From positions 376-64,375 of the forward strand of contig SBBB01000027.1 in assembly GCA_005239895.1 (NCBI GenBank): a stretch of DNA of 64,000 nucleotides. The letters are read 5' to 3'. Shown here one piece after another: positions 2,594 through 53,712 of the stretch; positions within the stretch are counted from its first letter, which is position 1, and the number at the start of each line of letters is the position of its first letter. The stretch is from a bacterium. Its GTDB lineage: Bacteria; Patescibacteriota; Patescibacteriia; SBBB01. The notes below the pieces were generated by a model. That model saw only the letters and a list, made by a program, of their open reading frames with translations, was not told the DNA's origin and searched no databases. A program made the position numbers and the translations under genes.

Positions 2594-3973
2594 ATGTTAC
2601 AAAATGCAAAACAGGTTTTAGTAGTTTTATTTATTATAAGTGTGTTAGTTATTGGAATTGCTGGAAGAGAAACATTTGCATCTTCTCATCATCTTAAAGC
2701 ATCCGAAAAAATAGTTCAAAACATGATGGAGAAGTATTCTAAAATTAATTCTTTAGAGTACTCAGGAGAATTAAAAGCGCAAACTAAGGGTCATGATGCG
2801 AGCAATTTTGTGCTTAATTTTAATGGGATGTCGGATGACAAAGATGTAAAAAATATTAAAGGGGTGTTGTCCTTGAATATTGCCGCTGATCAGGCATCTA
2901 GGGGTGAATCTGCTGATGAACCTACTAAGAAGAAATTTAATTTAGGATTAGATATAAGGTTTGTTAACAAAATAGTTTACGTAAGGCTGAATAATATCGA
3001 TATTCCCTCTTTTGGTAAATCTAAAGACAAAGAAATTTCCGAGATTACTAGTCTAAAAAATCAGTGGATTAAAATTGATATTGAAGCTTTAGCAAAATCT
3101 CCAGAACTAAAAGAATTAGGTTTAGATATAAAATTTAAAGAAGCGGAAAAACAAACCGAACTATCACCAGAACGGGTTAAAAAATTAGAGGAGGTTTTTA
3201 AACAGGCAAGAATTTTTAAAGTCGTAAAAAGATTTTCTGATAAAACCATTAATAATATACCAACTTACCATTTTAAATTTGAATTTGATAAAAATGGCAT
3301 AATAGAACTAATAGCTGGTATTTCAGAGGTTATGTTCGATAAAGAATCTGGAGAGGCAAAAATGGAGAGAGGAGAAATGCTTAAAGTGTATAGTAGGAAT
3401 TTTCAAGATATAAAACTTCCTAAGGGAGAGATTTGGATAGGTAAAAAGGATTTATTACCGCATAAAATTTATTTTGGTGTTAGGCCCAAGGTTGCTGTAA
3501 AAAGCGAGTTATCTACTAGGTATGATTTTACTCTTTTATTTAAAAATTTTAATAAACCAGTTCAGGTTGATGTTCCAGCTAATACTAAATCACTAGAAGA
3601 TATTATTGGTCCTAAACTTGCTGACGCCAGGCAAAAATCGCGCGATGCTAAACGCGTAGCTGATATGAAACAATTACAAACAGCTTTAGAGCTTTATTTT
3701 ACTGAAAAAAATGATTATCCACCTACGGCTGTTATAGATGATGGTGATCCAAAAAATACTCCTTTAAAATTATCTACTGGTAATGGTTTTTCTACTGTTG
3801 CTTCAGGTACAACAAATATGGAGTTTGTTCCAGAAAATCCGCAACCCAATGGCATACCGTATGTTTATAACAGACTAAGTCCAACAGATTTCACTATAGA
3901 TTTTAGTCTTGAAAAAGGTTTCGGAAATTTGTCAGCCGGACATCATGTTACCACTTCGGGTGGTATTAGGTAA
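2594..3973 (+). CDS. hypothetical membrane-anchored protein with C-terminal type IV pilin-like globular segment
   Basis: N-terminal TM helix. C-terminal ...ARQKSRDAKRVADMKQLQTALELYFTEKNDYP... matches the conserved post-helix region of type IV pilins/pseudopilins. Confidence 0.5.
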   Translation: MLQNAKQVLVVLFIISVLVIGIAGRETFASSHHLKASEKIVQNMMEKYSKINSLEYSGELKAQTKGHDASNFVLNFNGMSDDKDVKNIKGVLSLNIAADQASRGESADEPTKKKFNLGLDIRFVNKIVYVRLNNIDIPSFGKSKDKEISEITSLKNQWIKIDIEALAKSPELKELGLDIKFKEAEKQTELSPERVKKLEEVFKQARIFKVVKRFSDKTINNIPTYHFKFEFDKNGIIELIAGISEVMFDKESGEAKMERGEMLKVYSRNFQDIKLPKGEIWIGKKDLLPHKIYFGVRPKVAVKSELSTRYDFTLLFKNFNKPVQVDVPANTKSLEDIIGPKLADARQKSRDAKRVADMKQLQTALELYFTEKNDYPPTAVIDDGDPKNTPLKLSTGNGFSTVASGTTNMEFVPENPQPNGIPYVYNRLSPTDFTIDFSLEKGFGNLSAGHHVTTSGGIR

Positions 3974-17258: not shown

Positions 17259-17870
17259 TCAGGATTGATAGATATTTATGTTATATTTTTTATTCAAGCG
17301 ACAGAATAATTCATCCAAAGTCTTTTCCATGTTGTCAACTCTATTGTTTAGAGAGTACACTTGTTCATATGTTTTAAATTGTTGTACAAAATCTTTGCCA
17401 GTGGCAATGATACATGCGGTAATCTTTACATAGAATTGAAACATAATCTCAGCATCTGTGATTGATGGAACATGAAACGCCAAATTATAACCTTCTTCAT
17501 GGTACGGTGATCCATCCATGTAAGTTAGTGCGGGTGGATCGTAGAATGATTTCCAGATTTCGTGCATAGTACCAGTATCCCATAAAGATGGAATACGAGA
17601 TGTTAAAACAGCAAAATGTTTGTTTTGATTGCGTTCGGATGTATGATAGCGAGTATAATTATATCCATCTACTCTTGTAAGTAGTTCTATTTCATAATGT
17701 GGAAATATTGGCACTTTTCCAGTGTGCTTTTCATAGTAAAGTATAGGATCCAGCCAAAGGTCTTGTTGATTTTCAGCTCGATGAAAAACGCATTCAAATG
17801 AAATGTCAAACCGATTTCCTCTTAGACATCTCGCAAAAAGTCGCATATTTGATTCAGTGTTTTTAGCCAT
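17259..17870 (-). CDS. hypothetical protein, locally elevated GC
   Basis: 203 aa, no recognisable motif. GGAGG RBS. GC visibly higher than neighbours. Confidence 0.4.
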   Translation of the reverse strand: MAKNTESNMRLFARCLRGNRFDISFECVFHRAENQQDLWLDPILYYEKHTGKVPIFPHYEIELLTRVDGYNYTRYHTSERNQNKHFAVLTSRIPSLWDTGTMHEIWKSFYDPPALTYMDGSPYHEEGYNLAFHVPSITDAEIMFQFYVKITACIIATGKDFVQQFKTYEQVYSLNNRVDNMEKTLDELFCRLNKKYNINIYQS

Positions 17871-20864: not shown

Positions 20865-21983
20865 ATGATTGGTTTTTCTAAAAATCCCCAAGTTTATTTA
20901 GGAATAGATTTGGGACAAACAGGAATTAAATTAGTAGAATTAAACAAAGTAAATGAAAAACTTGAATTATCAACTTATGCTTTAGCTGAGTTTGATGAAA
21001 ATTTTTTGCAACATACAATTAAAGGTCAAAGTAGTGCCCAGGAAGTTGCGCGAGCTGTTAAATATACATGCGTTAAAGCTAAAACCAGGGGATTAAATGT
21101 CACTTCTTCCGTGCCAGCCTGTTCGGTTTTTACAGCGATACTTACAGTGCCTAATTTAAGTTTTACGGAAATGGATATTATTATTAGAAAAGAGACTAAA
21201 AAATTGATTCATTTTTCTTTAGAGGAAGTTATTGTGAGTTGGAAAATTGTAGGCACTAATCCTAATGTACAAAATATTTTATATAGCACTGTAGAACATT
21301 TAGAGAGAGTAGAAAAACCAAAAGACGAAGCTTTAACCCAAGTAACAGTTGTATTGACCGTAGTTCCTAAAAGTATCGTAACGAGATACAAAGAAATATT
21401 TCAACTGGCAGGATTAAAATTAGTAAGCCTAGAGACTGAAACCGTGGCTTTATCTAGAGCCTTAGTTGGCACAGAACAAGTATCTATACTTATATTAGAC
21501 ATAGGGGCTATTACGAGTAATATTTTTGTAATTGAAAACGGAGAGCCGGTTATAAGTAGAACCATAGAAGTTGGGGGTGTAACTATGACCGAGGCTTTGA
21601 GTAAATCTCTAAATTTAGATTTTAATTATACCGAACAATTAAAATATGATGTGGGTTTAAGTGTAACTAGTGAGGATGGAAAATCAACCATGTCTAGTGT
21701 CGTAGAACCCATTATAACCAAAATTATTGATGAAATTAAATATAGTTTAAATCTATATTACAAAGAAAATGAAAATAATAAAATTGAAAAAATAATTTTA
21801 ACTGGTGGTTCAGCTTTAGTTCCGGGGATTGATCAGTATATATCTCAATTAACTAGTTTATCGGTTTATGTTGGTGACCCTTGGTTTCACGTTGAGTATA
21901 ACAAGGCGTTACAGGGTCTTTTATATCAGATAGCGCCTCGTATGGCCGTAACCGTAGGTTTGGCTTTAAAAAATGTAATTTGA
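20865..21983 (+). CDS. pilM: type IV pilus assembly protein PilM-like (actin-like ATPase)
   Basis: LGIDLGQTGIKLVEL N-terminal actin-fold motif and overall PilM architecture. Confidence 0.65.
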   Translation: MIGFSKNPQVYLGIDLGQTGIKLVELNKVNEKLELSTYALAEFDENFLQHTIKGQSSAQEVARAVKYTCVKAKTRGLNVTSSVPACSVFTAILTVPNLSFTEMDIIIRKETKKLIHFSLEEVIVSWKIVGTNPNVQNILYSTVEHLERVEKPKDEALTQVTVVLTVVPKSIVTRYKEIFQLAGLKLVSLETETVALSRALVGTEQVSILILDIGAITSNIFVIENGEPVISRTIEVGGVTMTEALSKSLNLDFNYTEQLKYDVGLSVTSEDGKSTMSSVVEPIITKIIDEIKYSLNLYYKENENNKIEKIILTGGSALVPGIDQYISQLTSLSVYVGDPWFHVEYNKALQGLLYQIAPRMAVTVGLALKNVI

Positions 21984-21986
21984 TAT

Positions 21987-22868
21987 ATGGAAGACGAAAT
22001 ACTTATTAAAGATACCGATGGCGTATTTAAAATTTTAAAAAACAATATTTTAACTCCCGTAGTTACTTTAGAGGGTGATGATAATAATCTTTTTTCATTA
22101 AGCACCGATGCATTGTTAAAAAAAATAATTGAACTAAAAAACACTAGATTACAGAATACTTTTTCTTATCGGTTATCTTTAATAAAAGTGATATGCGAGA
22201 GGGGCATTTTAGAAAACGTTCTCTTTAATGAAAAAAAGAATTATGGCTTAGTCGAGATAGTTGAATTTGTAAAATCATTTTTAGGAACATCTCAAAAATC
22301 TTTAGAGGGTATTCAGGAGTTATCAGAAATAGGTAAAAGAATATTTCACTACGAAATAACCAATTATGTAGATTACAATCTTGATACTAAAAAGTTTGCG
22401 TTTAATGATATAGATGTTATTGATAAGAAACAAATACAAGCTATCGAAAGTTTACCTAGTTCAGATAGAATTCAAAAAGGACTAAGCGCTAGTTTGATTT
22501 TAAAATCAGCCCTTGGCAAGACTGGTAATTTAGAAGTTTTTTTGGAGTTTATTAATAAGGGGATATTTAAAACTTTATTTAATTTCGCGACTATAAATGA
22601 TTTGCAGAATAACATTAAATTGTCGGATGCTAAATTATTATTTGGATTTAGTCGTACGACTGACATTAGGGTAGATAGCAACGGTTACTTGCGGGTTTCC
22701 AATGATTGGCAAGATATAAATTTAGCCCGACTGAAGCAGTCTGGATTAAATCATGTGGCTTTTGCGAATTTAATAGCTGTGGTCTATAATATATTAGTAG
22801 GGAATAAAAAAATTGTTATGGGAGGTATAAATATTAAAGATGAAAAAGATAGAGTGGTTATTGTTTAA
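21987..22868 (+). CDS. hypothetical protein
   Basis: 293 aa, no TM. Gene 2 of the pilM-to-comF block. Confidence 0.35.
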   Translation: MEDEILIKDTDGVFKILKNNILTPVVTLEGDDNNLFSLSTDALLKKIIELKNTRLQNTFSYRLSLIKVICERGILENVLFNEKKNYGLVEIVEFVKSFLGTSQKSLEGIQELSEIGKRIFHYEITNYVDYNLDTKKFAFNDIDVIDKKQIQAIESLPSSDRIQKGLSASLILKSALGKTGNLEVFLEFINKGIFKTLFNFATINDLQNNIKLSDAKLLFGFSRTTDIRVDSNGYLRVSNDWQDINLARLKQSGLNHVAFANLIAVVYNILVGNKKIVMGGINIKDEKDRVVIV

Positions 22869-22930
22869 TATTAATTTTTTTAGAATAAATGTTTTTGAGT
22901 TTATTTAGTTTTGAAAAATATAATTAAAGT

Positions 22931-24946
22931 ATGAATCTTACTAAACAATCTTTTAATGATTTGACAAGTAGTCAGTTTCAAGATAGAGAGGTTTTTACAG
23001 CCCTGCAAGATGTTGTTTTAGATTGTGAGCGCTGGGCTCATTTAGGAGATATTTACGAGTTTTATATTATTTTAAAGCCTAAAATGAATGCTACTAAGGT
23101 TGATGGTCATTCTTTAGATATTTATTTGGAATATGAAGAATTGCTGATTAGAATGGGTTTTATTACTTTGCCGTTTCAGCCTCTTAGTGAGGTTGTAGAT
23201 TTATTTACCAAACATTTATTAGTAGCTTTAAAATTCAAAATAAACCTATTTGATAAATTTATTTTAAGATTTTTACTAAAAGATATAAAGGCTGTGCGCA
23301 CAGAACTTCAGGTTATTATTAAAGCCTTGGAAAGCAATTTGGAAATTATGGAGCCTGAAAACCCCACAATTCAACCCTACCCCATTAATTCCTGGATAAA
23401 CGACTATAAAAATTATTTAGAGAATAATAAGGGTACAACCAATACAATTGCTCAGTTTATAGATACGTTTATTACAGCCACAGTTGACGCTGATTTTAGA
23501 CAAAGAGTAAGAAGCGTTTTAAATATTTATGATTGGTTAGTAAATTACGAAGAACGTAAGCGCGCCAATACTATATCTACAGAGTTATATGTTAAAGACA
23601 ATGGTGTTTCCACTACTCGTGTTATCTCTAAAGCAGCTAACACTATTGATGTTAAAAAGAGTAATGAGGTTAGTATTCCTAAAGTTGATTATGATGCAAT
23701 TATTGATAAGGTTATTACAGAGTGTAATTTTAGTACGCAAGGAGAAATAATAGTAAAACGAGCTCGTAATATATGTTTAAGTTGTTTAAAAAATTTGCGA
23801 GATGTTGTAGATACTAAATTAATACTTATGCAGCCACAAACTAAAGGTGGTTTAGGTGTAACTGAAAAAATGGCCTATAAAATAATTAGTATGCTTACAG
23901 AGCATATTGATTTTGAATCCCAGATCCAAATTAAAAAGCCACTTCAAATGAAAATTTCTGTCACCCAATCATCTGATGCTGTTTTAGATCAATTAGAGTT
24001 AATGCCACCACCCCTAACTGTTATTTCAGTTGAACCAGAAGTGCCTGTTCCTCCGGTTGGTTCTACAACAACTGAAGAGAATGTGCTGGAAGAGAAACCC
24101 ATATTAAATCAGAATGAGTTGGTTGTTTCTTTAGAACCAGAAATACCCAATCCAATTATTACAGAGCCCACAGAACCAGTTGAGACAAGTCAAACTACTT
24201 TAAATTCTGTTGTAAATTCAGAAGTTTCTTTAGTGCCTGAAGAAGCTGTTACTGATTCTAAACAAACCAATTCACTTTTAGATCAACTAGAATTAATGCC
24301 ACCACCCCTAGCTGTTATTTCAGTTGAACCCGAAGTGCCTGTTCCTCCGGTTATTTCCACAATCACCGAAGTCAACCCACTTGAAGAAAAGCCCGTGTTA
24401 AATGAGTCAGTTATTTTTTCAGAACCAGAAATTCCAAAACAGGCTATTGTTCCAGACCCAGTAATTATTGAGACACCAACACCTGAAGCCCATCCCCTTA
24501 ATGCACAACCAATTACAAATGAAGCTGTTATACCGATTAAAGAAGAAGCTGTATCTAAAGAGATCGCGACTTCAGCAGTACTGGAAACATCCAAGGATTC
24601 GTTCAAAACCAGTCATAAATCACGAGTAATGACCCCCATTGATGAGTTGAGTGTTATGGGGTTGGTTGAATTTAGGCGTTTATCTGAAAATGCTTTTCAG
24701 GCTATGGAAAAACTTTCCAATAAATTAAAGCTTTGGGGACAAGAGTCGTTTTTAAAGCGCTTAGATGGAATAACAGCCTGGAGATCATCTCCCATACATC
24801 AGATGTATCTTGCGGTATGCAAAGAAAGTTTAAATCAGAATAAAAACCCATTTGACGTTATTAAAGCCCATAATAATCCTAAAGAGTATATCACCGTTGA
24901 TGAATATAGTGCTATAATATCTTTTAATATTAGTTTGAGAGTTTAA
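22931..24946 (+). CDS. hypothetical Pro/Glu-rich protein with internal ~98-aa tandem duplication
   Basis: DQLELMPPPL[T/A]VISVEPEVPVPPV... occurs twice. DNA repeats start at 23987 and 24281, near-identical over about 80 nt. Confidence 0.45.
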   Translation: MNLTKQSFNDLTSSQFQDREVFTALQDVVLDCERWAHLGDIYEFYIILKPKMNATKVDGHSLDIYLEYEELLIRMGFITLPFQPLSEVVDLFTKHLLVALKFKINLFDKFILRFLLKDIKAVRTELQVIIKALESNLEIMEPENPTIQPYPINSWINDYKNYLENNKGTTNTIAQFIDTFITATVDADFRQRVRSVLNIYDWLVNYEERKRANTISTELYVKDNGVSTTRVISKAANTIDVKKSNEVSIPKVDYDAIIDKVITECNFSTQGEIIVKRARNICLSCLKNLRDVVDTKLILMQPQTKGGLGVTEKMAYKIISMLTEHIDFESQIQIKKPLQMKISVTQSSDAVLDQLELMPPPLTVISVEPEVPVPPVGSTTTEENVLEEKPILNQNELVVSLEPEIPNPIITEPTEPVETSQTTLNSVVNSEVSLVPEEAVTDSKQTNSLLDQLELMPPPLAVISVEPEVPVPPVISTITEVNPLEEKPVLNESVIFSEPEIPKQAIVPDPVIIETPTPEAHPLNAQPITNEAVIPIKEEAVSKEIATSAVLETSKDSFKTSHKSRVMTPIDELSVMGLVEFRRLSENAFQAMEKLSNKLKLWGQESFLKRLDGITAWRSSPIHQMYLAVCKESLNQNKNPFDVIKAHNNPKEYITVDEYSAIISFNISLRV

Positions 24947-24970
24947 AAGTTATGATTTAAGATTTATGAT

Positions 24971-25107
24971 TTTTTTCATTCGCGTATTAGTGAAGGCTTC
25001 CTCCTACGCTTTTAGTGGAGCTTCCACCGACGCCCCAACTTCGTCAAGACTTCGATGGGTAGGCAAGGCTTTGGTGGACAAGCCGGAGGACAAACTGGAG
25101 GATAAGA
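24971..25107. repeat. GC-rich palindromic intergenic element upstream of the PrgI-like gene
   Basis: TTTTTCATTCGCG start resembles the MITE terminus TTGTCATTCCCGCG. Several nested hairpins (GTGGAGCTTCCAC; CCACC...GGTGG). Confidence 0.35.
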
Positions 25108-25114
25108 TTTAAAT

Positions 25115-25558
25115 ATGCAACAATTTACTATTCCACAATTTATTGATGTAGAATCAAAAATTATAGGCGCCATGACAACGCGTCAATTTCTTATTTGTTT
25201 ATCAGCTGGTGGTTTGTTGTATATTATTTATAAACTAGCTGATTTTACTTTATTTGTTTTTTTGGGTTTGATTATTATCGCGGTTTTTGGGGCCCTGGGT
25301 TTTCTGCCTATTAATGGAAGACCTATGCATTTTTTTCTTTTAAATTTTATGCAAACCCTGAAGAAACCCAAAACTAGAGTCTGGAATAAGCATATTTCTA
25401 AAACGGAACTCAAAAAAATTTTAGAGCGTAATTACCTGGCTCCAGTTGTTAGTCATATTATTCAACCTAAAGGTCAGTTACCGCAGAGTTCTTTGAGAGA
25501 TTTAGCCTTAGTAGTAGATACGGGCGGGGTTTATCATGGAGATAATTTATTGGATTAA
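25115..25558 (+). CDS. PrgI-family small membrane protein (T4SS VirB3-like)
   Basis: IPQFIDVESKIIGAMTTRQF N-terminus characteristic of the PrgI family. 2 TM helices. Confidence 0.6.
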   Translation: MQQFTIPQFIDVESKIIGAMTTRQFLICLSAGGLLYIIYKLADFTLFVFLGLIIIAVFGALGFLPINGRPMHFFLLNFMQTLKKPKTRVWNKHISKTELKKILERNYLAPVVSHIIQPKGQLPQSSLRDLALVVDTGGVYHGDNLLD

Positions 25559-25591
25559 AATTATTTTTAAATTATAAGATTTTTGAAAGAT

Positions 25592-26242
25592 ATGCAATCT
25601 ACACAACGTTTTTTAAATATTTCTGAAATTAGGGATAATTGTGTTATTTTAAAAGATGGTACTTTGTTGAGCGTTGTTATGGTGTCGTCAATTAATTTTG
25701 ATCTAAAGGCTGAAGACGAACAAAACGCAGTGATTTCTGGTTATGTTAATTTTTTAAATAGCATTGAATATCCTTTGCAAATAGTGATACAATCTCGCAA
25801 ATTGAATGTGGATGCGTATTTGCTAAAATTAGATAAGATTGTTAAGGCTCAAACCAATGAGCTTTTAAAGGCGCAAACCATAGATTATATTAAATATATT
25901 CGAAGCTTGCTGGAATTAGGTGAAATTATGACAAAACGTTTTTATGTTGTAGTTTCCTATAATGTTTTTAGTAATAAACAGAAAGGTTTTTGGACTAGAG
26001 TAATGGAAGTTTTTCACGCTGACGTGGTTATAAATTTAAGCGACAAGGTGTTCAAAGAGCGTAGTGAAGCCTTAAGTTTACGTACTAATCAGGTTAAAGC
26101 CGGCTTAACTAGTTTAGGTTTACAGTGTGTGGTTTTAGATACGCAAGGTTTAATAGAATTATATTATTACACTTATAATTTAGAATCATCTGAAATAGGA
26201 CAGACTTTAAAGATTGATAAATTAAATGTAGAGAGTGTTTAA
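25592..26242 (+). CDS. VirB4/TrbE N-terminal-domain-like protein (possibly 5' part of a split VirB4 gene)
   Basis: RFLNISEIRDNCVILKDGTLLSVVMVSSINFDLKAEDEQ resembles N-termini of Gram-positive VirB4 ATPases. Ends 8 nt inside the next ORF, in a different frame. Confidence 0.45.
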   Translation: MQSTQRFLNISEIRDNCVILKDGTLLSVVMVSSINFDLKAEDEQNAVISGYVNFLNSIEYPLQIVIQSRKLNVDAYLLKLDKIVKAQTNELLKAQTIDYIKYIRSLLELGEIMTKRFYVVVSYNVFSNKQKGFWTRVMEVFHADVVINLSDKVFKERSEALSLRTNQVKAGLTSLGLQCVVLDTQGLIELYYYTYNLESSEIGQTLKIDKLNVESV

Positions 26243-26249
26243 TACTATT

Positions 26250-28115
26250 ATGTTTAATTTTTTTAAGAAAAAAGCTAATCCATCTGAGGAATTATCAAAA
26301 ACCAAAGTAGATAAAGCAGATATTAAGTCTAGTGTTATAACCTCCGAAGTATTAGTCGAAGAATTTGTTTATCGTAAGGGTATTACTTCTATTAGAGATT
26401 TAATTTCTCCAGCTGCGATGGAAATAAAACCTAGGTATATTAAGCTGGGCAATAAGTTTGTGACGACTGTGTTTGTTATTACTTATCCACGTTATATTAA
26501 TGTTGGGTGGTTTAGGCCTATTATTAATTTAAATGCTACCATAGATATATCTATGTTTTTTTATCCAGTTGAAGCCGGTATTATTTTAAAACAATTAAGA
26601 GATAAGGTTGGTGTATTAGAAGCTCAACTGTCCTCGGATCATGACAAGGGTGCTCCACGCGACCCGTTGCGCGAAACAGCCTTGAGAGATATTGAAAAAT
26701 TACGAGATGATTTAACCCAAGGTGTTGAAAAATTTTTTCAATTTGGACTTTATGTAACAGTTTATACTAACACGGAAGAGGAGTTGATTAAAATGGTAAA
26801 TCTTTTAGAGTCATTATTTAATTCCAAATTAGTTATTATAAAACAAGGATTATATCAGGCGGAACAAGGTTTTATGTCAACCTTGCCGTTATCTAGCGAT
26901 GAGTTACAACTCTCATCTAACATGAATAGTTCTCCGATTGCGTCTTCTTTTCCTTTTATGTCTTCGGAATTAACATCTGATAATGGGGTGTTGTATGGTA
27001 TAAATCGCCATAATAATAGTTTAATTTTATTTGATCGTTTTTCTTTGCAGAATGCTAATTTTGCGGTTTTTGCGACTAGTGGAGCTGGTAAAAGTTATAC
27101 TATTAAATTAGAAGTTTTAAGACAGTTAATGATGGGTGTGGATGTCATTATTATTGATCCTGAAAAAGAGTATGGTCAATTATCAGCTGCTGTAGGTGGC
27201 ACCTATATTAATATTTCACTAAATTCCGAAAGTAAGATTAACCCATTTGATTTGCCCCGGGGAGCTAAAGACGTAAAAACTAGTGATGTTATACGCAGCG
27301 CGGTTATTACTGTTAAAGGACTACTGCGTTTGATGTTGGGGAGTTTTACAACCGAGGAGGATTCTTTGATGGATCGCGCCATTATTGAAACTTATGCTAA
27401 AAAAGATATTACGCCCGATGCGGACTTGTCACTCGTAGAACCTCCCATCTTGCAAGACTTGCAAAGTATATTAGAAGGTATGGATGGTGGCGCGAATTTA
27501 GTGTTAAGATTAAAAAAGTACACGGAAGGCACTTTTTCGGGATTCTTAAATAATCCCACCAATGTGGAAATTAATAATCAACTAGTGATATTTAGCGTCC
27601 GTGATTTGGAGGACGAATTGAGACCTTTAGCTATTTATACCGTAGTTAATTATATTTGGAATGTTGTGAGATCAAGTTTAAAGAAAAGAATATTAGTAAT
27701 TGACGAAGCGTGGTGGTTGATGCAACACGAAGATAGCGCTAAGTTTGTTTTTGCTTTAGTAAAAAGATGCCGAAAATATTATTTAGGAGTTACGACTATT
27801 ACGCAGGACGTGAATGATTTTTTGACTTCAATTTATGGAAAAGCCATTTTGAATAATTCCGCTATTCAAATGTTATTAAAACAATCGCCATCTTCTATTG
27901 ACTTAATTCAAAAAACTTTTTTATTAACTCAAGGTGAACGATATTTATTGCTTGAATCTGGCGTAGGTGAGGGTATTTTTTTTGCTGGGAATAAACACGC
28001 GGCGATTAAGGTTGTGGCATCTTATGTGGAAGACCAGATTATAACTTCTGATCCGCGTCAATTATTAGAAATAGAAGAAGCCAAGAAAGCCCTGGAAGAG
28101 TCTCAAGAAAAATAG
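26250..28115 (+). CDS. VirB4/TraC-like conjugal-transfer-type ATPase
   Basis: Walker A ATSGAGKS, Walker B VIDEAWWLM (DEAW), TTITQD motif. ATG at 26250 (track ORF opens at GTG 26235). Confidence 0.8.
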   Translation: MFNFFKKKANPSEELSKTKVDKADIKSSVITSEVLVEEFVYRKGITSIRDLISPAAMEIKPRYIKLGNKFVTTVFVITYPRYINVGWFRPIINLNATIDISMFFYPVEAGIILKQLRDKVGVLEAQLSSDHDKGAPRDPLRETALRDIEKLRDDLTQGVEKFFQFGLYVTVYTNTEEELIKMVNLLESLFNSKLVIIKQGLYQAEQGFMSTLPLSSDELQLSSNMNSSPIASSFPFMSSELTSDNGVLYGINRHNNSLILFDRFSLQNANFAVFATSGAGKSYTIKLEVLRQLMMGVDVIIIDPEKEYGQLSAAVGGTYINISLNSESKINPFDLPRGAKDVKTSDVIRSAVITVKGLLRLMLGSFTTEEDSLMDRAIIETYAKKDITPDADLSLVEPPILQDLQSILEGMDGGANLVLRLKKYTEGTFSGFLNNPTNVEINNQLVIFSVRDLEDELRPLAIYTVVNYIWNVVRSSLKKRILVIDEAWWLMQHEDSAKFVFALVKRCRKYYLGVTTITQDVNDFLTSIYGKAILNNSAIQMLLKQSPSSIDLIQKTFLLTQGERYLLLESGVGEGIFFAGNKHAAIKVVASYVEDQIITSDPRQLLEIEEAKKALEESQEK

Positions 28116-28136
28116 TTTATTTAATTAATCGTTATT

Positions 28137-28718
28137 ATGTCTAGTTTCACTAAAAAAATATTGATTTTGGTGGTTGTGATTTTAATAGGAGTTGGTTTAT
28201 GGGCATTCTGGACGTTTTTTTCTGAACCCTCAACATTAGAAATTTCAAATAATACAACCGTAGATCAGCCTATAAAAAAAATTATCAAACCAATCCCAAC
28301 TTCCAAGCCAGAAGCAGTTGTTAAAAAAGAAGTTAAAAAAGTTAGTCCGGAAGAGATTTTACAAACCAACCTAGTTAAAGTAGCTAGTGATTTTGTAGAA
28401 CGATTTGGTAGTTATTCCAATCATAATTCTTATGAAAATATTAAAGATTTGCAATTTGCAATGACTGAAAGTATGTGGAACAACGTTCAACCCAAGCCAA
28501 GTATTAAATCTACTCCCAAATATAGTGGCATGACCACCAAAGTTATTACAAGCAATATAATTAAATCTGATAACACTTTAGCCAAGGTAGATATCGCTAC
28601 CCAGAGGCAAGAATTTAAAGAGGGTTCTGCGCAACCTAGAGTTTTTTATCAAAATGTTTTAGTAACTTTAGTAAAAGATAATACTTCGTGGAAGATTGAT
28701 AATATCGAATGGAAATAA
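28137..28718 (+). CDS. hypothetical membrane-anchored / secreted protein
   Basis: N-terminal TM/signal anchor. No motif. Confidence 0.35.
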   Translation: MSSFTKKILILVVVILIGVGLWAFWTFFSEPSTLEISNNTTVDQPIKKIIKPIPTSKPEAVVKKEVKKVSPEEILQTNLVKVASDFVERFGSYSNHNSYENIKDLQFAMTESMWNNVQPKPSIKSTPKYSGMTTKVITSNIIKSDNTLAKVDIATQRQEFKEGSAQPRVFYQNVLVTLVKDNTSWKIDNIEWK

Positions 28719-29449
28719 TAAAAAATTTAAAATCCTTAATTTGTGCAGGCTCAAAATTAGTTTTAGATTGTTTATTCCCACTCAAATGTTTAAGTTGCTA
28801 TAAAGAAGGTAGTTGGGTGTGTTCAGAGTGCTTGCCAAAATTAAAAATTAATAATTTTCAATATTGTATTATTTGCGAAGGTCGTAATTTAGATGGCAGG
28901 GTTTGCATGGCTTGCGCTGAAAAATCTTATTTAAATGGATTACTAGTGGTATTTGATTATAAACATTATTTGGTTAAAAAGTTGATTACTACTTTTAAAT
29001 ATCAAAAAGCTCACCAATTAAAATATTTTTTAAGTGATTATTTAGTTGATTTATTGCACACAGTTTTTATACTAAACTTAGATTTAGAAAAACAAGATGA
29101 TATGGTCGTAACTTTTGTGCCTTTGCACAAAAAGCGTTTAATTGAAAGGGGATTTGATCAAGCAAATCTACTGTCTGAAATCTTAGCCCAGCAGTTGAAT
29201 TTAAATTTTACTCAATTATTAGTTCGCACGAGATATACCATACCTCAAGTAAAGTTAAGCATAGATGAACGTTTAAACAATTTACAGGGGGCGTTTAAAG
29301 TTCAAGATGCTCGCCAGAGTATTTTTAATAAAAAAGTAATTTTAGTGGATGATGTTGTTACCACTGGATCTACAATGCAAGAATGCGCTCGAGTTTTAAA
29401 ATTAGCTGGAGCGGCTGAAGTGTGGGGAATAGCTATTGCTAAAGGGTAG
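28709..29449 (+). CDS. comFC: ComF family protein (double zinc ribbon + phosphoribosyltransferase domain)
   Basis: CxxC...CxxC ribbons at the N-terminus. PRTase motif VILVDDVVTTGSTM. Confidence 0.8.
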   Translation: MEIIKNLKSLICAGSKLVLDCLFPLKCLSCYKEGSWVCSECLPKLKINNFQYCIICEGRNLDGRVCMACAEKSYLNGLLVVFDYKHYLVKKLITTFKYQKAHQLKYFLSDYLVDLLHTVFILNLDLEKQDDMVVTFVPLHKKRLIERGFDQANLLSEILAQQLNLNFTQLLVRTRYTIPQVKLSIDERLNNLQGAFKVQDARQSIFNKKVILVDDVVTTGSTMQECARVLKLAGAAEVWGIAIAKG

Positions 29450-29654: not shown

Positions 29655-30404
29655 TTATTGCCACTTAAGTACTTTCGCTGCCACACGGAAGCTGTAACTA
29701 TGTTGTTGTACACGGGTCTTGCGTAGGGTTATCATGTCCTTGCGTAGAGTTGTTTCTTCTTCTCTTTTTTGGGTTGCGGGGTAGAAGAAATTTACAGGCA
29801 CGGAAATTACGCGATGACCATTGGCTATTGCTATTATAGATGCATAGATTTGAACATGCTTATCGAGCGCGTCAAATTGGGTTGGATTGCAAGCTGCAAA
29901 ATATTGAGCCATTTTACAGCTAAGCGCTACAGCTCCAAAGGGTATATCAAACCCCTTTTTTCCGGTTGCCTGCGAGAAAGCTGCGTTTGTTTCTTTTTCG
30001 GCCGTAACCTGAAAGTCTGGATAACTTGACCAACTTTCCTCAGTTCGTTTTGGCATTACAATATCAGCCTGGCCTTGCTCAATTGGGGCGATTATACTTG
30101 GTATCAGGCGAACCAGATCTACTTTCTCTGGTTCCATGGCAACCAGAACGTCAGACTCATTAAATCTGTCAACGCATATACCAAACAATTCCCGTTTTTG
30201 TTCGCCAAAGGTTTTGGCGGATGAGTTATGAACATCAGCGCCAATTCTTCTAAAAGATCTAGATATTTCAGGATTGGGGGATTTGTCTACTATCAATACA
30301 TCGTATCCGAGAGCAATAGCGTTGCCAATGGTTTGGCACGCTAAATGATATCGAATTGCTTCCTGGCTTTTATACAAGCTCGTCATAACTATCTTTATAC
30401 TCAT
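29655..30404 (-). CDS. hypothetical protein, elevated GC (possibly foreign)
   Basis: 249 aa. Codon usage and GC (about 45% by eye) differ from neighbours. Weak resemblance to a nucleotide-sugar-transferase-like fold only. Confidence 0.35.
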   Translation of the reverse strand: MSIKIVMTSLYKSQEAIRYHLACQTIGNAIALGYDVLIVDKSPNPEISRSFRRIGADVHNSSAKTFGEQKRELFGICVDRFNESDVLVAMEPEKVDLVRLIPSIIAPIEQGQADIVMPKRTEESWSSYPDFQVTAEKETNAAFSQATGKKGFDIPFGAVALSCKMAQYFAACNPTQFDALDKHVQIYASIIAIANGHRVISVPVNFFYPATQKREEETTLRKDMITLRKTRVQQHSYSFRVAAKVLKWQ

Positions 30405-30858: not shown

Positions 30859-31119
30859 ATGACTCTACATAATTTAGTTAAAAAAAGATCTTACTTATTT
30901 TGGTCCACCAAAAATTATAAGGGGCTTTCTAAAGAAGCGGTTTTAGAAGGAGTTTTAAATTATGGAACCATGAAAGATGTGCAAGAGGTTTTCTCTATTT
31001 TAGGCATGAACAATGCGGCTAATATTTTTTATAAACAAATAAAAAATAAACGTAACAATTATCGCCCCGAAATAAAGAATTATTTTAAATTATATTTTAA
31101 AAAATATACACCCCGTTAG
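30859..31119 (+). CDS. small conserved partner protein of an AbiEii-like nucleotidyltransferase (putative antitoxin-like)
   Basis: 86 aa. Paralogous to 52808..53032 (shared LFW.T...L.K.A..Y...K...G pattern). Immediately upstream of the NTase. Confidence 0.4.
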   Translation: MTLHNLVKKRSYLFWSTKNYKGLSKEAVLEGVLNYGTMKDVQEVFSILGMNNAANIFYKQIKNKRNNYRPEIKNYFKLYFKKYTPR

Positions 31120-31148: not shown

Positions 31149-31811
31149 ATGCAAATTATACACAAAAAAATTAAACATATTATACCTTCAGCATCTAATG
31201 GGATGCATCCCGAAGTGTTAACTAAAAAACAAATTGAGCTATTGCCGCTGATTAAATTATTTTCTAGTAATTTTGGTTTAGTTGGAGGTACGGCGATTGC
31301 TTTACAAATAGGTCACAGAGGATCATTAGATTTTGATCTTTTTACTAATAAAAGATTTGATAATTTATCAATAAGGGAAAAGATTTTAAAATATGGAAAA
31401 ATAGAAAAAGTTTTGGTTGATCATAAAGACGAGTATACTGTTTTGATAAAAGGAACAAAAATAACATTTCTTTATTATCCTTTTCAGCTGGCATTTTCTA
31501 AAAATTTTAACAATATTATAAAAATGGCTGATCTTTTAACAATAGCAGCTATGAAAGCTTACGCTCTTGGTCGTCGAGCAAAGTGGAAAGATTATGTGGA
31601 TCTTTATTTTATTTTAAGTATTTATAGTATGGATAAAATTATTCAAAAAGCTGATAAAATATTTGGCTCTGAATTTGATCAAAAATTGTTTAAGGTTCAG
31701 TTGAGTTATTTTAAAGATATTGATTATTCCGAAAAAATAATTTATAGGGACAAATTTCAAACTAGTGATAATACCATTAAAAAAGGATTGTTAGATTTTA
31801 TTTTTAAGTAA
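31149..31811 (+). CDS. AbiEii/DUF1814-family nucleotidyltransferase (type IV TA toxin-like)
   Basis: GLVGGTAIALQIGHRGSLDFDLF N-terminal NTase motif. C-terminal R.KWKDYVDLYFIL motif of the AbiEii family. Confidence 0.6.
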   Translation: MQIIHKKIKHIIPSASNGMHPEVLTKKQIELLPLIKLFSSNFGLVGGTAIALQIGHRGSLDFDLFTNKRFDNLSIREKILKYGKIEKVLVDHKDEYTVLIKGTKITFLYYPFQLAFSKNFNNIIKMADLLTIAAMKAYALGRRAKWKDYVDLYFILSIYSMDKIIQKADKIFGSEFDQKLFKVQLSYFKDIDYSEKIIYRDKFQTSDNTIKKGLLDFIFK

Positions 31812-51370: not shown

Positions 51371-51506
51371 GCGACGGTAGCTCAGCGGTAGAGCGCTTGT
51401 TCAGTATAGAGGAGAGTCACCGTCACACTTTTTGGTCGTAATTAATGACCGAAACTCTTTACGTTTTACGACAAGAGGTCGGGGGTTCAAATCCTCCTCG
51501 TCGCTC
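51371..51506 (+). tRNA. tRNA-like gene interrupted by a ~63-65-nt insertion in the anticodon loop (candidate intron; isotype unresolved)
   Basis: Canonical acceptor GCGACGG/TCGTCGC, U8A9, D-arm GCTC-AGCGGTA-GAGC, anticodon stem CTTGT (51396-51400) / ACAAG (51471-51475) separated by 70 nt, variable AGGTC, T-arm GGGGG-TTCAAAT-CCTCC. Confidence 0.5.
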
Positions 51507-52807: not shown

Positions 52808-53032
52808 ATGAAATTAAGACCAGAGTTATTTTGGGATACGAATATTAAAAATATTGATTTAAGAAAACATGCTCAGTATATTATTGAAAAAGTAGCTGAT
52901 TTTGGTCACGATAATGAAGTGCGCTGGGTATTAAATTTATATAGTAAAAAATTATTAAGAAAAGTTATTGCTAAATCTAGGTGTTTACGTCCCGAAACAA
53001 AAGCTCTATGGGTTTTACTATTAAAAAAATAA
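52808..53032 (+). CDS. small conserved partner protein of an AbiEii-like nucleotidyltransferase (paralog of 30859..31119)
   Basis: 74 aa. LFWDTN... pattern shared with the first copy. Confidence 0.4.
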   Translation: MKLRPELFWDTNIKNIDLRKHAQYIIEKVADFGHDNEVRWVLNLYSKKLLRKVIAKSRCLRPETKALWVLLLKK

Positions 53033-53046
53033 ACAATAATCAAGAT

Positions 53047-53712
53047 ATGGTTTTGGGTGATGTACATTGGCATTATGAAACATTACCGCGCAGTACAAAA
53101 AAGGCTTTTATTTTTTTGTCTGAACAAAAGTGGTTAAAAAAGTCAAATTGGTATTTAGCTGGTGGTACGGCTTTAGCTCTTTGGTGTGGCAATCGTAAAT
53201 CTTTGGATTTAGATTTTTTTATTAAAGATAAAGATTTTACTGACAATCAGGTCTTGAAATATTTTATAGGAAATAAAAATTGGAAACTTGAATTAAATAA
53301 AGAGAATACAATATTTGCAAAATTATTTAATGCTAAAATAAGTTTTATTAGTTATCCATTTTTTGAACCTAGACAGGATTTAGTGTGGCATGGGTCGGTT
53401 CGTGTATTGCATCCGATTGATATTGCAGTTATGAAAATTATAGCCATATCTCAGCGCGGTAAAAAGAGAGATTTTTTTGATTTATATTGGTGCGCTCATA
53501 ATATTGAACTTTTGACAAGAACAATTAAAAGACTTAAAGTCCAATATCCATTGGTTGTGCATAATTACCATCATATTTTAAAAAGTTTAGTATATTTTGA
53601 TGATGCAGAAAATGATCCTGAGCCAGAAATTTACTTTAATGCCAGTTGGAGTAAAGTAAAAAAGTTTTTTACTAAAGAGATTTCTATTATTGCGGATCGT
53701 ATTTTGCGTTAA
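53047..53712 (+). CDS. AbiEii/DUF1814-family nucleotidyltransferase (second copy)
   Basis: AGGTALALWCGNRKSLDLDFF and RGKKRDFFDLYW motifs. ATG at 53047 chosen (track ORF opens at GTG 52981, overlapping the small ORF). Confidence 0.6.
   Translation: MVLGDVHWHYETLPRSTKKAFIFLSEQKWLKKSNWYLAGGTALALWCGNRKSLDLDFFIKDKDFTDNQVLKYFIGNKNWKLELNKENTIFAKLFNAKISFISYPFFEPRQDLVWHGSVRVLHPIDIAVMKIIAISQRGKKRDFFDLYWCAHNIELLTRTIKRLKVQYPLVVHNYHHILKSLVYFDDAENDPEPEIYFNASWSKVKKFFTKEISIIADRILR

Follow-up and report, generated by a model that had tools for sequence, protein, structure and literature searches.

Do the eight genes that follow one another on the + strand of the patescibacterial DNA analyzed here, from PilM to ComF, encode a single machine, and if so, of what kind? 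The analyzed stretch of 64 kb, which we call the window and whose positions serve as coordinates throughout, had been read in a preliminary description as carrying one co-directional block, in which a type IV pilus component (PilM), a PrgI/VirB3-like membrane protein, a "split" VirB4 ATPase and ComF were joined by three unrecognized proteins of 293, 671 and 193 aa (here u293, U671 and U193) into a hybrid apparatus. All eight open reading frames (ORFs) were found where that description had placed them, and profile searches bear out its PilM, PrgI/VirB3-like, VirB4 and ComF assignments. Six of these ORFs make up the ordinary chromosomal type IV secretion system (T4SS) core, known from earlier work, of ultrasmall ABY1-class candidate phyla radiation (CPR) bacteria, together with its usual neighbor ComF. 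We consider it very probable that the interval 22931-29449 represents the cytoplasmic-membrane and energizing core of a chromosomal, non-conjugative T4SS typical of ABY1 Patescibacteria.

Conservation of the gene unit in relatives

A VirB4 scan of one genome per species yielded 80 loci, the VirB4 proteins of which are 68-75% identical to that of the window. The relatives are patescibacterial metagenome-assembled genomes named Falkow-, Magasanik-, Uhr-, Buchanan- and Kerfeldbacteria, which we take to be the GTDB class ABY1. Synteny was counted from tblastn searches with the window proteins and from all-against-all clustering of the locus ORFs. Order and strand are kept for TrsD in 80/80 loci, for PrgI in 77/80, for U193 in 75/80, for U671 in 73/80 and for ComF in 42/80, giving the conserved order U671, PrgI, TrsD, VirB4 and U193, followed by ComF, RadA or RecG; one of these last three lies downstream in 41 of the 44 relatives that have at least 5 kb of downstream sequence. 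The intergenic gaps of the unit are short in the relatives, with medians of 4.5-24 bp.

Independent look-ups that started from two U671 homologues (P0038 and P0052) and one U193 homologue (P0008) led to the same arrangement. The three contigs carry an unannotated protein of ~950-1025 aa, U671, PrgI, a TraC-like protein, VirB4, U193 and ComF, with RecG and RadA-type genes further downstream in two of them (P0038 and P0052); the Pfam labels are PrgI, TraC-like, P-loop_TraG, Pribosyltran, RecG and RadA-type. Because PilM and u293 are lacking both from the 80 loci and from these three independently retrieved ones, the unit begins at 22931, not at 20865. The synteny comparison thus preserved a six-gene unit within the proposed block but left PilM and u293 outside it. 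Co-directionality itself is weak evidence for one block, because approximately three-quarters of the window ORFs are on the + strand and the gene for glycyl-tRNA synthetase (GlyRS) is part of the same run.

In many relatives, genes for proteins of ~120 aa are inserted at varying places inside the operon from U671 to U193 (loci L003, L005, L006, L011, L013, L015, L016, L042, L043, L047, L055, L060, L065 and L078). One cluster of these (c15) consists of 23S rRNA intervening-sequence/bAvd-like proteins (PF05635, 2.9e-34), and a second (c18) is unannotated; the insertions look like a recurrent phenomenon. They often occupy the intergenic positions of the operon, a situation that may be compared with the gap between the U671 and PrgI genes of the window, where a GC-rich stretch of ~110 nt (24975-25110) stands out from surroundings of 30-35% GC. 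As a structured RNA this stretch was rejected, its predicted fold being no better than that of shuffled sequences (z = -1.08, not significant).

The ATPase pair and its membrane partners

The TrsD ORF matches VirB4 profiles over N-terminal parts only (positions 101-235 of 894), and its match to NF041427 lies below the 200-bit cutoff of that model; the VirB4 ORF covers profile positions 268-893 of 894, so that the two together make up a full VirB4. The 3' end of the TrsD gene overlaps the start of the VirB4 gene by 8 nt. The Walker A motif GAGKS, the Walker B motif DEAW and the ITQD motif, all reported previously, are intact in the translation. TrsD is a separate ORF upstream of virB4 in 80/80 relatives, where its homologues carry the PF26593 TraC-like domain, and a separate TrsD has also been described in PMC12102498; the "split VirB4" is therefore the normal TrsD and VirB4 gene pair of this T4SS class and not a broken gene. 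Identity to the relatives is ~50% for TrsD and ~70% for VirB4, a degree of sequence conservation that indicates purifying selection over the whole class. PrgI, which adjoins the virB4 region, has a hydrophobic hairpin at residues 32-69 and keeps its position in 77/80 relatives.

U193 has one N-terminal transmembrane (TM) segment, and its predicted-structure model matches the VirB8 fold; judged from this model, the protein is VirB8-like and not a novel type of component. Members of its family stand after VirB4 in 75/80 ABY1 loci, so that a VirB8-like subunit is near-universal at this place in ABY1 and far commoner than earlier searches with hidden Markov models (HMMs) showed. The ComF gene, which encodes an N-terminal double zinc ribbon and a phosphoribosyltransferase domain and matches TIGR00201 over its full length, overlaps the VirB8-like gene by 10 nt in the window. 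In relatives, ComF directly follows the VirB8-like gene in 36/80 cases (median gap of 4.5 bp over the 36 adjacent pairs) and is at position +2 in 37/80. The ComF link of the preliminary description is thus a conserved one, and the VirB8-like and ComF genes are often translationally coupled.

Pfam and NCBIfam profile searches found no relaxase or type IV coupling protein (T4CP) family match among the eight proteins, and no T4SS pilin is present in the block. Window ORFs of at least 110 aa, read by eye and with Pfam searches of 18 ambiguous ORFs of at least 86 aa, likewise showed no relaxase, coupling protein or T4SS pilin. Integration or replication functions suited to a conjugative element were recognized neither in the block nor in the other window ORFs, and no ComEC- or ComEA-like ORF and no candidate effector/immunity pair were recognized in the window. 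These results support the earlier view of a non-conjugative T4SS-type apparatus in a CPR bacterium that has neither relaxase nor T4CP.

The U671 family

The 671-aa protein consists of an 'a' module (~40-209), a 'b' module (~250-345) and a C-terminal domain (566-671) that belongs with the latter, joined by a Pro/Glu-rich disordered linker. This linker (residues 346-565; 15% Pro and 15% Glu) contains the internal duplication that had been noticed previously: 23982-24112 and 24276-24406 are 83% identical over 131 nt at a spacing of 294 nt. In the AlphaFold2 model, the duplicated region has a predicted local distance difference test (pLDDT) score <50, and confident helical domains are seen at 250-330 and 565-671. 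The conserved domains have invariant Arg, Gly and Trp positions. Low-complexity words dominated a homology search with the full-length protein, which matched nothing but the query, and the search was rerun without the linker.

In 73/80 relatives, a gene of this family is found directly upstream of PrgI. The upstream sequence extends over 8 kb or more in 51 relatives, of which 31 have two or more upstream U671-family genes and 20 have one. The N-terminal part of the window protein aligns with the 'a' profile (hhalign 96.9%, E 1.7e-10), and matches to 'b' were obtained as well; by sequence comparison, U671 here evidently fuses what most relatives encode as two separate genes. The protein has no TM segment, and no Pfam, NCBIfam, PDB-sequence or fold match was obtained for it. 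U671 is a cytoplasmic, all-alpha, T4SS-linked family that is truly uncharacterized. The possibility of a new subunit class is raised by its two confident all-alpha domains, its invariant residues, its place before VirB3 and its lack of a sequence or fold relative.

PilM and the 293-aa ORFan

Neither PilM nor u293 gave a tblastn match within 10 kb of VirB4 in the 80 relatives, and we conclude that they are lineage-specific neighbors and not parts of the machine. No homologue of u293 other than itself was found among 1.84e9 representative proteins, and it has no TM segment. Its codon usage is host-like in frame 0, and a chance ORF of 293 codons has p ~6e-10; u293 is a lineage-specific ORFan. The ideas that it is a diverged U671 'a' paralogue or a member of cluster c27 were rejected at hhalign probabilities of 0.3% and 0.1%, respectively, and that of a PilN substitute was rejected because it has neither a TM segment nor, by sequence reading, a PilN-like N-terminus. 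Thus, among the three proteins put forward as novel structural components, U671 and U193 proved to be conserved companions of VirB4, the model of U193 matches the VirB8 fold, U671 gave no profile or fold match, and u293 is an ORFan.

No PilN, PilO, PilB, PilC, PilT or pilin genes were recognized in the window, so that PilM stands alone as a pilus component. When metagenomes were scanned with PilM, no relatives were returned.

Elsewhere in the window, a 459-aa protein (2594-3973) has an N-terminal hydrophobic segment, and its C-terminal region holds RDAKRVADMKQLQTALELYF, which resembles the residues that, in type IV pilin-like proteins of CPR bacteria, come right after the N-terminal helix; the only Pfam match is a weak one to DUF6438.

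Candidate channel and pilin components in relatives

Most ABY1 relatives have a conserved trio (c10, c12 and c5) upstream of the core (loci L001-L080 and L082-L084). The protein c5 (~950 aa), which is encoded just upstream of U671 in 42/51 relatives, is polytopic in its N-terminal region and has a long hydrophilic tail, and it resembles in architecture the proteins that PMC12857230 terms "extended VirB6". Before it one often finds c12 (~215 aa), the C-terminal half of which we read as two hydrophobic segments, and c10, a large Cys-rich secreted protein of ~670 aa or more. None of the three has a Pfam or NCBIfam match; the labels "VirB6-like" for c5 and "VirB2-like" for c12 follow from topology, and c10, c12 and c5 are candidates for an adhesin, a pilin and an extended VirB6 belonging to this T4SS. 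In addition, proteins with a T4SS_pilin domain fused to a peptidase are encoded near the core, the peptidase being VanY in cluster c11 of the VirB4-scan loci and Peptidase_C39 in one retrieved contig.

The window has no homologue of any of these proteins and, lacking c5, no VirB6-like polytopic channel. Within 10 kb, c5 is missing in 9/51 relatives, including the two best VirB4 matches, so that the core module is evidently separable from the channel/pilin module. A VirB6-like channel (~950 aa) and VirB2-like pilins would, we infer, be encoded elsewhere in the genome.

Genomic setting

The coordinates of the genes are collected in Table 1. All eight genes show host-like codon usage in frame 0. 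A promoter scan gave 59 promoter-like sites versus 49 expected and is uninformative in DNA of such AT richness.

Table 1. Genes and repeat of the locus, with the profile matches or features that identify them.
Feature	Position	Strand	Match or feature
PilM	20865-21983	+	TIGR01175 3.8e-49, 167.6 bits vs cutoff 133
u293, 293-aa ORFan	21987-22868	+	no Pfam/NCBIfam match
U671-family protein, 671 aa	22931-24946	+	no family match
Internal duplication in U671 linker	23982-24406	+	131-nt direct repeat
PrgI/VirB3-like small membrane protein	25115-25558	+	PF12666 1.5e-8, 35.4 bits vs cutoff 27
TrsD/TraD-family protein, 219 aa	25583-26242	+	NF041427 2.7e-9
VirB4-type ATPase (MPF-FATA/CD1110-like), 626 aa	26235-28115	+	NF045971 1.4e-101, 341 bits vs cutoff 325
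VirB8-like bitopic membrane protein (U193), 193 aa	28137-28718	+	TM helix 3-28, linker, NTF2-like domain 71-192
ComF(C)-family protein	28709-29449	+	TIGR00201 7.7e-32, GntX 6.3e-31, PF00156, DZR_2

Several further features of the surroundings were recorded. Two opposite-strand ORFs of ~200-250 aa that flank the region, 29655-30404 (-) and 17259-17870 (-), have no Pfam match. Genes for AbiEii-type nucleotidyltransferase toxins (PF08843) are present at 31149-31811 (2e-9) and 52981-53712 (2.9e-17), and an 86-aa ORF (30859-31119) upstream of the former could encode an antitoxin; in what is a very small genome, the two loci may represent abortive-infection or type IV toxin-antitoxin modules. An Rfam tRNA call at 51371-51505 (135 nt, 49.7 bits), which is absent from the ARAGORN output, may correspond to a tRNA gene interrupted by ~60 nt of inserted or intron sequence.

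Discussion

A Patescibacteria-specific clade of VirB4 related to MPF-FATA was reported in 2025 by Quinonero-Coronel et al. (PMC12102498), who found TrsD (2,272 homologues, mostly adjoining VirB4) and PrgI/VirB3 to be its commonest companions, relaxases to be almost absent, T4CP genes to lie elsewhere, and comF, recG and radA to be near virB4 in class ABY1; only ~50 VirB8 homologues, nearly all of them from ABY1, were listed. The relaxase-less chromosomal T4SS of ABY1 and its comF/recG/radA neighborhood had thus already been published, and the novelty suggested by the preliminary description falls away to this extent. The window locus shares with this clade its chromosomal location, a VirB4 related to MPF-FATA, separate TrsD and PrgI/VirB3 genes beside virB4, the lack of a relaxase and of a nearby T4CP, the ABY1 context of comF, recG and radA, and the VirB8 matches found there occasionally. 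It differs in its fused U671 'a' and 'b' modules, in the PilM and ORFan genes upstream, and in that the VirB6-like, VirB2-like and secreted-protein genes that most ABY1 relatives have beside the core are missing over at least 64 kb.

The monoderm conjugation systems of the MPF-FATA class (Trs of pGO1/pSK41, Tra of pIP501, Prg of pCF10 and CD1110 of CTn2) are also among the closest known systems. Unlike them, the window locus has no relaxase, T4CP, oriT, adhesin or VirB1-type hydrolase, it lies in a housekeeping context and not in a mobile element, and its U671 family has no counterpart in them by sequence or fold. Helicobacter pylori ComB and the archaeal Ced system are likewise centered on VirB4 and lack a relaxase and coupling protein; in the ABY1 lineage, the gene order ties the machine to ComF, RadA and RecG. 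ComB is a diderm system with VirB7/9/10 homologues, and no ComEC or ComEA gene was recognized in the window. With the PilMNOP platform of type IV pili the locus shares only a bona fide PilM, which scores above the TIGR01175 cutoff; the partners PilN and PilO, the proteins PilB, PilC and PilT and a pilin are missing, and the protein encoded after PilM has no TM helix and no N-terminus like that of PilN.

By analogy with the monoderm MPF-FATA conjugation systems, VirB3, TrsD/VirB4 and VirB8 would form an ATPase platform at the inner membrane, in which PrgI would serve as the membrane anchor of the TrsD/VirB4 ATPase, the VirB8-like protein would be a further part, and U671 might dock from the cytoplasm. 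We infer that the machine most likely transports a macromolecule between host cell and epibiont. The function that we tentatively favor is the import of nucleic acid, as by H. pylori ComB or archaeal Ced, because relaxase and T4CP are absent, the composition (VirB2-like, VirB3, VirB4, VirB6-like and VirB8-like) resembles that of ComB and Ced, and ComF, RadA or RecG are habitually downstream; in the window, ComF(C) is genetically coupled to the transporter. We have also considered that U671 may represent a novel, ABY1-specific class of cytoplasmic T4SS subunit. It would then handle the substrate in place of the missing coupling protein, and the T4SS would import nucleic acid and pass it on to ComF, RadA and RecG; we regard this more specific proposal as rather unlikely.

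Several points weigh against these interpretations. The view of DNA import rests on gene neighborhood only, and the ComF protein scores below the trusted cutoff of TIGR00201. The conserved domains of U671 have an acidic median pI (~5.5) across the family, and fold searches found no nucleic-acid-binding fold in them. No VirB6-like, VirB2-like, VirB1-like, RadA or RecG homologue is present in the 64-kb window, so that the completeness of the machine in this organism is not demonstrable. Furthermore, in Southlakia epibionticum, a Saccharibacterium and thus of a different class, comEC is dispensable (PMC12857230) and the T4SS is essential for epibiotic growth, as Wang et al. 2023 are quoted in the same paper; the essential role there is therefore not ComEC-dependent transformation.

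Both effector delivery and the uptake of DNA or nucleotides, with H. pylori ComB as a precedent, have been proposed (PMC12857230 and PMC11665869), and the same T4SS core could be seen as an exporter of protein effectors or a device for pilus assembly and host contact, with ComF as a merely conserved housekeeping neighbor. We rate this possibility as nearly as likely as nucleic-acid import: the large Cys-rich secreted proteins and the T4SS_pilin-peptidase fusions (VanY and Peptidase_C39) beside the core in relatives are consistent with it, effector delivery was proposed for Saccharibacteria in particular (PMC11665869), some effector T4SSs, such as Ptl and Brucella VirB, do without a coupling protein (PMC12102498), and an essential T4SS beside dispensable competence in S. 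epibionticum points the same way. Against it stand the association with ComF, RadA or RecG in 41/44 relatives and the frequent translational coupling of the VirB8-like and ComF genes, and no candidate effector/immunity pair was recognized in the window.

The other two explanations, in which the block as a whole would be something else, fare worse. That all eight genes form one hybrid apparatus, with PilM and u293 working with the VirB4 machinery and ComF in competence or host contact, agrees with their tight packing on one strand (3 bp between PilM and u293, and 62 bp between u293 and U671), with the absence of a strong terminator-like site from the inter-gene gaps between PilM and PrgI, and with the cooperation of type IV pili with T4SS-like DNA import in Sulfolobales and with R64 conjugation, as far as work cited in PMC12102498 indicates. 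Such an arrangement is nevertheless very unlikely, since PilM and u293 do not occur near VirB4 in the 80 relatives, or in the three independent loci; moreover, u293 has no homologue, PilM is the one pilus gene found in the window, chance would produce co-orientation on a strand with this bias, and a candidate -35/-10 pair (22895-22924), itself weak evidence, lies between u293 and U671. Even less credible is the reading as what is left of an integrated conjugative element in decay, with a VirB4 split by mutation. The two overlapping ORFs and the lack of a relaxase, T4CP, VirB6 and pilin in the window would fit, but the two-ORF arrangement recurs throughout the relatives at the identities given above, no catalytic motif is damaged, the block is indistinguishable from housekeeping genes in base composition and codon usage, and the flanking genes are those for GlyRS and aspartyl-tRNA synthetase (AspRS), with no integrase or repeats. 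We reject this reading on the basis of the conservation in relatives and the codon usage, and we return to a chromosomal T4SS core as the preferred interpretation.

The role of the T4SS in Patescibacteria has been described as "completely unknown" (PMC11665869), and the system is essential in the one tractable species. The window adds no new kind of system to this picture; it sharpens the parts list for ABY1 and removes the supposed PilM/T4SS hybrid as a false lead. The remaining novelty lies in the near-universal VirB8-like subunit and in the U671 family, a conserved cytoplasmic protein without a known relative directly before VirB3. U671 and the VirB8-like/ComF pair thus provide concrete targets for the question of whether this T4SS imports DNA.

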